From a virus (taxonomy: Duplodnaviria; Heunggongvirae; Uroviricota; Caudoviricetes), in the IMG/VR virus record IMGVR_UViG_2721755720_000005: a stretch of DNA of 40,305 nucleotides; one strand, written 5' to 3'. Position 1 is the stretch's first letter. Every line of letters starts with the position of its first letter. Shown piece by piece: positions 33,170 to 35,239 of this stretch. A program made the position numbers and the translations under genes. The notes under the pieces are model-generated. The model saw nothing but the letters and a program-made list of their open reading frames with translations, searched no databases and was not told the DNA's origin.

Positions 33170-35239
33170 ATGTCAGACTCCCAGTGGAAAATGCTCTCCG
33201 CCATGCCCGGAGAGTTTTCAGTCAAGGTTGCCGGTGGCACGGTGGCATTTATTGAAAGTCCTTTCAGGCCTTCGGGTAATAAAGGGGGGATCACCTTCGC
33301 AGACTGCGTGATCCGCTTCAGCACGAAAGAGCCATTATGGATAATGCCGGTATCCGGTAATCCCAGTGCAGAAATCACCAGTTCAGGCGTGACCGGCATC
33401 ATTCCGATTACAGCTGACGTGGCCGGAACACTCACGCCCTCCGACTGGAATGCACCGGATAACGCCGGGCCTTCCGGCAGCACGAATGGCAGTACCACAG
33501 AGCCGGAGTATTACTATGTGATCCCACTGGCGGGACAATCAAATGGCATGGCCTATGGTGAAGGGCTTCCGTTACCGGATTCATTTGACCGCCCGGACCC
33601 ACGGATTAAGCAACTGGCACGCCGCAGCACGGTCACGCCCGACGGTACGTCGTGTACATATAACGACATCATTCCGGCAGATCACTGCCTGCATGATGTT
33701 CAGGATATGAGCGGGATAAACCACCCGAAAGCTGATCTGGCAAAAGGCCAGTACGGGACTGTCGGTCAGGGGCTGCATATTGCCAAAAAACTGCTGCCTT
33801 ATATCCCGCAGAATGCCGGGATACTTCTGGTGCCCTGTTGCCGTGGTGGGTCAGCATTTACCACCGGGGCGGACGGTTCATTCAGTGAGGCCAGCGGTGC
33901 TTCCGCTGATTCTTCACGCTGGGGAGTTGGTAAACCTCTGTATCAGGACCTGGTAAGTCGTACCAGAGCGGCGCTGGCGAAGAACCCGAAAAACAAACTT
34001 CTGGCTGTGGTCTGGATACAGGGAGAAGCAGACCTTGCATCGGGAAGTCAGCAGCATAATGGTTTATTCACGACCATGGTTCAGCAGTTCAGAACTGACC
34101 TGTCTCCGCTTGCTGCGCAGTGTGTGAGTGGAAATGCCACCATGGTGCCGTGGATTTGTGGTGATACCACGTATTACTGGAAAAACGCTGGCACCGATAA
34201 ATATGAGGCGGTATACGGTGGCTACAAAGGCAAGGAAACTCAGAATATTTTCTTTGTACCGTTCCTGACGGATGAGAATGGACAGAACACGCCAACGAAT
34301 GCTCCGACGGAAGATCCGGATATTGTGGCTGTCGGGTATTACGGTGCGGCATCCCGTACCCAGGGCAGTTTTGTCTCGACACAGCGTGACAGCCATTTCA
34401 GCTCATGGGCACGCAGGGGCATTATTTCAGACCGTCTGGCCTCAGCCATTCTGCTCCATGCGGGACGCACACCTGAAGTGATGCAGGGACCGGTTGTGAC
34501 ACAGCCGGATGAAAAACCATCACCTGACACGCCATCAACACCATCGCCGGATACACCGTCCACACCACCGGCTGACACCACGACGATGAGCGCGTTGCTT
34601 GCTTACCGGGCATCAGAGTCTGAAGGACAACTGGCACCACAGGGCTGGACTGCCGGTGGCGGCAAGGCTCAAATTGTGGATGATGCCGGAGCCAGCGGGG
34701 GTAAGGCCATGAAACTGACCAAGGAAACAGGTAAATCCTCCTGGTACCTTGAACATGATGCCGGTAATGGTGCCGACCTGCTGGGTAAAGGCGGCCTTGT
34801 CAGCTGCCGGTTTAAGGTTGACGGCACACTGACGGCTAATCAGTACGCACTGGCGCTGTACTGGCCGGTTTCGGCTCTGCCGCAGGGCGTCTCACTGGAA
34901 GGTAATGCCGGTCATAACCTGCTGGCATCGTTCTACGTACAGAGCGATGCCACAGACCTTAACGTGATGTATCACAAAGGAAGCACGGCGCAGAACACGA
35001 AGCTGGGGTCATTCGGCGCATTTGATAATGAGTGGCATACGCTGGGCTTCCGTTTTGCCGGTAACAACAGTATTGAGGTGACGCCGGTCATTGATGGTAA
35101 GGACGGGACACCATTCATGCTGTCGCAGTCACCTGTCGGTTCTTTTGCGGCAGACAAGTTACGCATGACCGATATCACTAACGGTGCAACATACCCGGTG
35201 CTGATTGACAGCATTGTGGTGGAAGTGAATAACGCGTAA
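33170..35239 (+). CDS. Multi-domain cargo protein: SGNH/sialate-O-acetylesterase-like domain, Pro/Thr linker, lectin-like C-terminal domain
   Basis: 689 aa; motif YYYVIPLAGQSNGMAYGEG (GQSN block of the SASA/SGNH esterase family); linker PSPDTPSTPSPDTPSTPPADTT; beta-rich C-terminal domain. Confidence 0.8.
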   Translation: MSDSQWKMLSAMPGEFSVKVAGGTVAFIESPFRPSGNKGGITFADCVIRFSTKEPLWIMPVSGNPSAEITSSGVTGIIPITADVAGTLTPSDWNAPDNAGPSGSTNGSTTEPEYYYVIPLAGQSNGMAYGEGLPLPDSFDRPDPRIKQLARRSTVTPDGTSCTYNDIIPADHCLHDVQDMSGINHPKADLAKGQYGTVGQGLHIAKKLLPYIPQNAGILLVPCCRGGSAFTTGADGSFSEASGASADSSRWGVGKPLYQDLVSRTRAALAKNPKNKLLAVVWIQGEADLASGSQQHNGLFTTMVQQFRTDLSPLAAQCVSGNATMVPWICGDTTYYWKNAGTDKYEAVYGGYKGKETQNIFFVPFLTDENGQNTPTNAPTEDPDIVAVGYYGAASRTQGSFVSTQRDSHFSSWARRGIISDRLASAILLHAGRTPEVMQGPVVTQPDEKPSPDTPSTPSPDTPSTPPADTTTMSALLAYRASESEGQLAPQGWTAGGGKAQIVDDAGASGGKAMKLTKETGKSSWYLEHDAGNGADLLGKGGLVSCRFKVDGTLTANQYALALYWPVSALPQGVSLEGNAGHNLLASFYVQSDATDLNVMYHKGSTAQNTKLGSFGAFDNEWHTLGFRFAGNNSIEVTPVIDGKDGTPFMLSQSPVGSFAADKLRMTDITNGATYPVLIDSIVVEVNNA
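34517..34564 (+). repeat. In-frame tandem repeat, 2 x 24 bp, encoding PSPDTPST twice (interdomain linker)
   Basis: Two consecutive 24-bp units, same amino acids with synonymous and near-synonymous differences. Confidence 0.6.

Follow-up and report, generated by a model that had tools for sequence, protein, structure and literature searches.

A predicted NanS-p-type sialate O-acetylesterase with an unrelated N-terminal module in the gin-com/mom slot of Sp18/CRP49-like Mu-type prophages

Sialate O-acetylesterases of the NanS-p family are among the commonest prophage cargo in pathogenic Escherichia coli, where they are usually discussed as a trait of lambdoid or Shiga toxin (Stx)-encoding phages and viewed as a means of feeding lysogens on mucus sialic acid. 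The subject here is a nanS-p gene found in a phage of a different kind. It occupies positions 33170-35239 of a 40,305-nucleotide stretch of viral DNA (IMG/VR record IMGVR_UViG_2721755720_000005; the whole stretch is referred to below as the window), which matches the chromosome of E. coli M18, isolated from a mouse (NZ_CP010219.1), with 100% identity and contains an almost complete Mu-type prophage. Judged by its sequence, the open reading frame (ORF) is an intact NanS-p-family sialate O-acetylesterase of variant architecture. A second, unrelated phage type, the Mu-type Sp18/CRP49 lineage, thus carries the same enzyme as an essentially fixed cassette, and counts of nanS-p alleles that are limited to lambdoid prophages will miss the Mu-type copies.

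The closest described counterparts are the NanS-p proteins of lambdoid phages, such as those of 933W (L0105/z1466) and phi24B (vb_24B_21/gp84). Like the protein described here, they combine a SASA/SGNH core, a Pro/Ser/Thr linker and a DUF6645 domain, lack a signal peptide, and are encoded by a late-phase gene with DUF1378 and DUF826 genes downstream. Their activity on the O-acetylated sialic acid Neu5,9Ac2 and on mucin glycans has been published, and lambdoid nanS-p expression is late and induction-dependent, as seen in the late-gene induction of z1466 (PMC8065619). In phi24B, full-length NanS-p (gp84) is an abundant virion protein, with DUF1737 hexamers in the capsid hexon pores (bioRxiv 10.64898/2026.04.10.717836). 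The protein encoded in the window is 63-66% identical to the Stx-phage NanS-p proteins of 933W and VT2-Sakai, and its body is up to 94% identical to some lambdoid copies. It differs from them in being carried by a transposable Mu-type myovirus and not by a lambdoid phage, in occupying the slot between gin and com/mom rather than that between Q/stx and the holin gene, in having a putative site for a Mor/C-family activator instead of Q antitermination at pR', and in carrying an unrelated beta module of ~80 amino acids (aa) in place of the N-terminal DUF1737, the capsid anchor of phi24B. The chromosomal NanS (YjhS; Protein Data Bank entry 3pt5) has a homologous catalytic domain, corresponding to aa 108-428 here, with the same variant SGNH blocks, but it is a single-domain protein of 337 aa that belongs to the sialic-acid catabolic regulon, is not phage-borne, and has neither the N-terminal module nor the lectin-like domain.

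One member of the same prophage lineage has been mentioned in print: ORF51 of Citrobacter rodentium CRP49, a "sialate O-acetyltransferase" (sic), was listed as fitness cargo (Magaziner et al. 2019, PMC6456863), and CRP49 was reported to be related to the prophages of E. coli CI5 and O157 Sakai (PMC6456863), both of which fall into the lineage analysed here. Compared by its published description, ORF51 shares the lineage and the role of fitness cargo with the present gene, but it is a table entry from automated re-annotation, named as a transferase and presented without domain, promoter or comparative analysis. A literature search returned no paper combining nanS-p with Mu-like phages and no mention of DUF6645. 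Carriage of nanS-p by Mu-type prophages is common, and public genomes have shown it ever since that of O157 Sakai; to our knowledge, it has not been analysed before.

The ORF lies on the plus strand, starts with ATG and encodes 689 aa without internal stops. Its parts are listed below with the evidence for each; AlphaFold2 (AF2) model confidence is expressed as the predicted local distance difference test (pLDDT), and selection as the ratio of nonsynonymous to synonymous substitution rates (dN/dS).

33170-35239, plus strand: nanS-p gene, Mu-type variant, 689 aa (ORF; Pfam, PHROG and Protein Data Bank matches)
33170-33415, plus strand: N-terminal module (N-module; aa 1 to ~82), predicted all-beta and mini-cupin-like (AF2, lack of Pfam matches, phmmer, dN/dS)
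33416-33499, plus strand: predicted disordered linker 1 (aa ~83-110) (pLDDT <50; blastn breakpoint at 33500)
33500-34468, plus strand: SGNH/SASA catalytic domain (aa ~111-433) (alignment with 3pt5, motifs, Ser/His conservation)
34469-34588, plus strand: Pro/Thr/Ser-rich linker 2 (aa ~434-473), variable in length among copies (alignment)
34589-35239, plus strand: DUF6645, a lectin-like domain of jelly-roll type and putative carbohydrate-binding module (aa 474-689) (6yp6, Pfam)

The Pfam matches comprise SASA (PF03629; E 3e-12, above the gathering score) and DUF6645 (PF20350; E 2.5e-68), and PHROG_143 spans aa 71-689 with E 3.5e-296. In the comparison with Protein Data Bank sequences, 3pt5 matches aa 108-428 (E 1.5e-119, ~70% identity) and 6yp6, the NanS-p C-terminal domain, matches aa 474-688 (E 7.9e-101). 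NCBIfam has no named model for the esterase or the neighbouring genes, and neither a signal peptide nor a transmembrane (TM) segment was found in the esterase. The Pro/Thr/Ser-rich linker 2, with its PSPDTPST tandem, divides the esterase domain from the lectin-like domain. A preliminary description of this DNA, based on the letters alone, had proposed an SGNH/SASA esterase of 689 aa with a Pro/Thr linker and a lectin-like beta domain, a layout that the Pfam matches to SASA and DUF6645 and the alignments with 3pt5 and 6yp6 bear out. The block that it quoted as typical of such esterases, YYYVIPLAGQSNGMAYGEG, is aa 114-132 and contains the conserved Ser124, and the profile search that it had suggested gave very strong family hits, with both Ser124 and His409 conserved. 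That description overlooked the separate N-terminal domain that replaces DUF1737, which is the most informative feature of the protein.

The SGNH/SASA blocks of the esterase, all of them conserved, are GQSN (Ser124), CCRGGS (223), QGE (284) and RDSH (His409), and the Ser and His residues are invariant in the eight copies compared. Variant SGNH blocks of this kind, GQSN ... RxSH, have been described in the NanS family (PMC10462455). The putative sugar-binding aromatic residues of the DUF6645 domain (Y559, Y564, Y589 and F659) are all conserved in the alignment; the four aromatics were proposed to bind carbohydrate in the C-terminal domain of phi24B (PMC10462455). The features that the protein and its locus share with NanS-p are, by sequence comparison, the SASA core, the DUF6645 domain and a late-region position with DUF1378 and DUF826; DUF1737 is the missing one. 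By homology to NanS (70% identity) and to the characterised NanS-p of 933W, the substrate would be expected to be Neu5,9Ac2 and O-acetylated mucin glycans. A decaying pseudogene is ruled out by dN/dS values well below 1 (~0.1 for the esterase domain) and by a gene that is intact in >200 genomes.

The region upstream of the catalytic domain gave no Pfam signal for DUF1737, or for any other family, even at E 10, whereas DUF1737 is recognized at aa 3-53 of the lambdoid 933W NanS-p with E 4e-18. The possibility that the N-module is a diverged DUF1737 was rejected by profile-profile comparison with hhalign (probability 0.1%), and its derivation from another prophage gene was rejected as it has no paralog in the prophage. 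In an AF2 model built from an 18-sequence alignment, the predicted fold is all-beta and has five strands (block pLDDT 79-90 over aa 11-70); strands extend to ~aa 79, and a disordered linker with pLDDT <50 follows. A structure search with this fold was uninformative, giving only weak, cupin-like matches. In an exhaustive phmmer search of 1.84 billion representatives, the N-module was seen only on NanS-type esterases; a word-indexed homolog search returned only fragments. A single distant homolog, P0005 from Salmonella (31% identity), is encoded downstream of Gin in a Mu-type prophage; P0006 and P0007 proved to be spurious phmmer hits. The N-module is under purifying selection: its dN/dS ranges from 0.03 to 0.24, with 0.03 against the STEC299 copy, and the comparison with the O157 type gives a proportion of nonsynonymous differences (pN) of 0.25 against a saturated synonymous proportion (pS) of 0.75. 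An unrelated ~80-aa beta module that takes the place of DUF1737, only on these esterases and only in Mu-type prophages, appears to be new.

The gene order of the lineage is baseplate, tail fibre, invertible fibre-tip segment, Gin, nanS-p, DUF1378, DUF826, a short slot of variable content, com, mom or a gene for a Dcm-type methyltransferase, and the right end. It is the same in ten E. coli loci (M18, M3, AST198, FORC_069, STEC299, 2012EL-2448, CI5, O157:H7 PA20, OkiPb01677, and a Mu-like phage that is annotated as an insertion in the record of an Stx1a phage), and each E. coli prophage sits in a different interrupted host gene, as expected for transposition. This order is also seen in a Salmonella enterica contig as far as it reaches, which is into the truncated esterase gene; between gin and that gene, the contig has two additional small ORFs of 58 and 87 aa (L007, positions 9426-9910). 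With both module types used as queries (blastn with one type misses the O157-type module, which is ~69% identical), the N-modules were detected in 28 + 205 of 5,426 complete E. coli genomes (~233). This number matches that of the genomes carrying the lineage's baseplate genes (229 of the 5,426), so that the cassette is essentially fixed in the Sp18/CRP49-like Mu lineage, of which nanS-p, DUF1378 and DUF826 form a standing component between gin and com/mom. The lineage was found in O157:H7, other E. coli that produce Shiga toxin (STEC), Shigella, Salmonella and mouse-gut E. coli. Sp18 of O157:H7 has been reported to be intact, spontaneously induced and efficiently packaged (PMC2669165). The earlier suggestion that such a gene is unusual in a Mu-like prophage was therefore overstated, the cassette being a fixed part of a lineage found in ~233 complete E. 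coli genomes including O157:H7, and its placement at the position of the invertible G segment needs correction: the gene occupies the gin-com slot, just downstream of gin and the invertible segment, and does not take their place.

The leader is conserved in Mu-type loci from position 33017 onward, and an 85-nucleotide (nt) leader precedes the esterase gene. It contains two predicted elements:

33064-33092, plus strand: terminator-like hairpin (CGTCACG...CGTGACG) with a T-run, directly upstream of the promoter (terminator scan)
33092-33134, plus strand: putative C-dependent late promoter, consisting of TTGAATTTCCGCAAA, 22 nt and TATTCT (motif search)

In relatives, the position of the leader hairpin follows gin. 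The 15-bp element of the putative promoter lies at approximately -50 to -36 in the nanS-p leader, forms an imperfect dyad together with the preceding T-run, and is accompanied by no -35 hexamer. In Mu late promoters, a -10 hexamer is combined with a C dimer site (dyad) centred at -43.5, and a -35 hexamer is lacking (PMC2582627); the geometry of the leader matches this published C site (PMC2582627). Elsewhere in the 40-kb window, there are just two occurrences of the composite motif, one at 9814 in the C-lys interval and one at 18001 in the G-I interval; the neighbours of these two sites were confirmed as the genes for Mor/C (9395-9817), lysozyme, gpG and protease I. As a side observation, the sites at 9814-9857 and 18001-18044 share CTGAnnTnCCGCAAA-N23-TA(C/T)GCT. 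The pattern CCGCAAA-N22/23-TAnnCT has three hits in the window against 0.02 expected, and no shuffled sequence reaches three. The complete O157-type Mu, which is ~70-84% identical, has exactly three hits as well (C-lys, G-I and gin-nanS-p; 0 in 200 shuffles), and the motif is retained in all Mu-type leaders, also where the surrounding leader has diverged. In the Salmonella leader, the E. coli-type late-promoter motif is not evident.

Like the C-dependent late promoters of Mu itself (P_lys, P_I, P_P and P_mom), the three sites have a -10 element without a -35 hexamer and an imperfect dyad of ~15-19 bp near -43, and those before lys and I are placed as in Mu, whereas the nanS-p promoter would be an extra one that Mu lacks. 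The sequence of the motif in this lineage differs from what we take to be the C sites of Mu. We infer from the motif and its distribution that nanS-p is probably a late gene with its own putative C-type promoter. The cassette thus appears to be wired into the Mu-type phage's own late regulon, and this apparent recruitment of nanS-p appears to be new.

The same leader bears on an account in which nanS-p is a moron of lysogenic conversion that is active in the repressed prophage, with read-through from the constitutively expressed gin as one possible route, so that the lysogen itself grows on O-acetylated sialic acid. Lysogens carrying nanS-p alleles do grow on Neu5,9Ac2 (PMC8065619), the CRP49 homolog is listed as a fitness gene (PMC6456863), and, in the relatives, nanS-p lies on the strand of gin, with its start ~85-100 bp downstream of that gene. 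However, the terminator-like hairpin and T-run stand between gin and nanS-p, and the leader has the late-promoter motif instead of a sigma-70 -35/-10 pair, evidence that argues against expression from a repressed prophage. Moreover, M18, M3 and M1 have lost gin yet kept the leader and the gene intact, the enzyme has no signal peptide and would therefore stay cytoplasmic in an intact lysogen, and the lambdoid nanS-p genes are late and induction-dependent. We regard this account as improbable.

It is instead probable, in our estimate, that the enzyme is made late in lytic growth, is freed at lysis and de-O-acetylates sialoglycans outside the cell. Its own C-activated late-class promoter would lead to synthesis of the esterase in lytic growth along with the lysis and head proteins, and, because the esterase carries no secretion signal, release would come with phage lysis. 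The three-part enzyme, with its N-terminal beta module, SGNH/SASA esterase domain (Ser124/His409) and lectin-like sugar-binding domain, would then remove 9-O-acetyl groups from mucin-type sialoglycans or from free Neu5,9Ac2, the lectin-like domain directing it to its substrate. The resulting sialic acid would become usable by surviving kin lysogens, and the reaction may also serve the phage in mucus.

Several points weigh against lysis-released action of this kind. The promoter motif was derived from the same three M18 sites on which it was scored, which makes the statistic partly circular and leaves the O157-type phage as the sole independent test, and neither of the two phages examined has a match to the tight motif upstream of gene P or com/mom, where Mu has its other two late promoters. 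A canonical Ser-His-Asp triad cannot be asserted from the sequence: block V reads R-D-S-H, which puts Asp407 at -2 and not at -3 from His409 as in DxxH; NanS and the 933W NanS-p have RSSH or RASH in this block, with no Asp there; and the full-length single-sequence AF2 model (pLDDT 33.6) is unusable and affords no structural view of the triad, the assessment of catalytic residues being based on alignments and on PMC10462455. Both the enzyme activity and the substrate derive from homologs, not from this protein. Finally, the invertible segment of M18 is damaged, and this particular prophage may not make infectious particles.

Comparison with lambdoid copies revealed that the body of the enzyme and its N-module have had different histories. 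Window positions 33500-35253 are 93.7% identical at the DNA level (blastn) to the lambdoid copy of the mouse-gut strain PG20180057, in whose prophage Q, tRNAs, nanS-p, DUF1378, DUF826 and holin follow one another in this order. The shared stretch thus runs from aa 111 to 14 nt beyond the stop codon, and no similarity continues past it. Domain by domain, the M18 body is 94-100% identical to this lambdoid copy (100% in linker 2), and the body of the O157-Mu copy is closest to that of 933W (80-82% identity), whereas the two Mu-borne bodies, those of M18-Mu and O157-Mu, are just 70-74% identical to each other. The N-modules, by contrast, group strictly by phage type, with 62-100% identity within the Mu type and 15-25% between the Mu-type module and DUF1737. 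These domain-by-domain identities indicate at least two moves of the enzymatic body between phage types, with the 5' module remaining in its phage. This exchange of the body has sharp limits, one breakpoint falling where the domains meet and the other shortly after the stop codon, and appears to be new. Strains M1 and M3 hold both Mu-type and lambdoid copies, so gene conversion between co-resident paralogs would be a sufficient mechanism, and the association of module and phage type does not by itself prove a phage-type-specific function of the module.

The C-terminal module, too, has been exchanged within the family, since the Mu-type copy of STEC299, a marmot E. coli (L009, positions 7001-9133; 710 aa), keeps the N-module and the esterase domain while its DUF6645 domain is strongly divergent (E 1e-22 versus 1e-68; pN 0.48), with one of the binding aromatics changed from Phe to Ser. 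Within linker 2, the PSPDTPST tandem (window positions 34520-34570, aa ~451-466) differs in length among copies, AST198 being shorter by 5 aa. For phi24B, autoproteolytic processing has been proposed to take place in the linkers between domains. Mouse-gut E. coli (M18, M3, M1 and PG20180057) are the source of the closest copies of the M18 allele, Mu-borne as well as lambdoid. Several flanking phage proteins have WP_0129086xx accessions, a range that we take to be associated with the mouse pathogen C. rodentium. This hints that the M18 allele circulates among mouse enteric bacteria.

The retained N-module raises the alternative that NanS-p is displayed on the virion, with the module serving as a Mu-type virion anchor, the counterpart of DUF1737, and enabling particles to bind or cross O-acetylated mucus. 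Display is compatible with late expression and differs from lysis-released action only in the destination of the protein. The only domain that differs between the two kinds of NanS-p is the one reported in a 2026 preprint to attach the lambdoid enzyme to the capsid, and phi24B gp84, with DUF1737 as its capsid-docking domain, provides the precedent (bioRxiv 10.64898/2026.04.10.717836). DUF1737 has been swapped, exactly at the domain boundary, for a well-folded module with a disordered linker; this module tracks phage type although the bodies have been exchanged between types, persists at 31% identity in a Mu-type prophage of Salmonella, and evolves under purifying selection. In addition, nanS-p shares its promoter type with head genes. 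Nevertheless, the evidence for the Mu lineage is genomic, the fold search with the N-module was uninformative, the association of module and phage type has a neutral explanation, and the capsid-binding domain that marks decoration of the phi24B gp84 type, DUF1737, is absent from the esterase. On balance, we consider virion display possible, at about one chance in three.

A more specific version, to which we assign a slightly lower and still tentative standing, is that the unrelated mini-cupin-like module docks a freely exchanged esterase-lectin body on the Mu-type particle as DUF1737 does on lambdoid capsids. If this were true, NanS-p proteins would be virion-displayed enzymes on interchangeable anchor modules, two unrelated phage morphotypes would have converged on particles decorated with an enzyme that edits mucus sialoglycans, and the N-module would represent a novel type of domain for attachment to virions. 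The prediction that Mu-type particles display the esterase via the new module is testable, and the Mu-type and lambdoid proteins, a pair that nature has made to differ by a domain swap, offer a way to learn whom the enzyme benefits: the bacterium, the phage particle or both.

The location of the gene also brings up a tail-associated enzyme, a fibre or spike accessory that would remove O-acetyl groups from host lipopolysaccharide (LPS) or capsule at adsorption. The gene is next to the region of tail fibres and invertible host range, a tail-protein family of PHROG weakly matches the SASA region (phrog_25867, E 3.9e-6), and a review of STEC raises LPS de-O-acetylation as a possibility (PMC8065619). 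Yet the N-terminus has no similarity to those of fibre, spike or baseplate-attachment proteins and the N-module has no paralog in the prophage. The body is 94% identical to lambdoid copies that are encoded beside lysis genes, not tail genes, and the core is 70% identical to the sialic-acid-specific NanS. Besides, gin and the terminator divide nanS-p, with its own putative promoter, from the fibre operon. A role at the tail is thus very unlikely.

The rest of the cassette and its surroundings are as follows.

35383-35565, plus strand: DUF1378 gene, second gene of the cassette, encoding 60 aa with a predicted N-terminal TM helix (Pfam E 7.6e-34; Kyte-Doolittle 2.26)
35601-35855, plus strand: DUF826 gene, third gene of the cassette, encoding 84 aa (Pfam E 3.4e-15; placement constant across the contexts examined)
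35861-35888, strand not assigned: GC-rich hairpin closing the cassette (terminator scan, blastn, sequence)

DUF1378 and then DUF826 follow nanS-p in Mu-type and lambdoid prophages alike; in the latter, the pair lies between nanS-p and the holin gene (PMC10462455). Homology to other Mu-type loci stops in blastn at ~35899. Beyond this point, positions 35900-36770 of the window are an M18-specific insert of low GC content (~0.40) in the variable slot between DUF826 and com, which encodes on the minus strand a zinc-ribbon ORF of 201 aa (35977-36582). In other relatives, the slot holds either a 154-aa minus-strand ORF or a 66-aa plus-strand ORF, both without a Pfam hit.

The Mu-type genes of the window include those for MuA, MuB, GemA, a Mor/C-family activator and lysozyme; the Mu portal protein, MuF, gpG, protease I and the gpT capsid protein; and the sheath, tape measure, gpP, baseplate J, gp48, tail fibre and tail-fibre assembly proteins. 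Com and Mom are encoded as well. The right end of the prophage is at 37922, where ...ATCGCCGCGCTATA is common to eight loci whose flanks diverge directly afterwards. The remaining positions, 37923-40305, belong to a gene for an EcoR124-family type I restriction R subunit (hsdR), the N-terminus of which is absent; its interruption by the Mu insertion means that this host restriction gene is knocked out in M18.

A deletion of ~975 bp in M18, M3 and M1 has removed gin together with the alternative fibre tip and the inverted repeat on the right, and the invertible tail-fibre (G-type) segment (32344-33016 of the window) is frozen. The tail-fibre assembly gene of these strains is on the minus strand, convergent with the fibre gene over a shared hairpin at 32321-32340. 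The relatives have inverted repeats of 86-105 nt and 50-56 nt, ~1.1 kb apart, and the assembly gene of CI5 is in the opposite orientation, from which it follows that the segment does invert.

The modification gene behind com (36903-37794 in the window) varies within the lineage. It encodes Mom in M18, M3, STEC299 and OkiPb01677, an unnamed gene product of the size and position of Mom in FORC_069, 2012EL-2448 and PA20, and a Dcm-type cytosine methyltransferase in AST198 and CI5 and probably also in the O157 inserted Mu (350-aa ORF). Whichever modification gene follows, the com leader and the Mu right end are the same in all of these.

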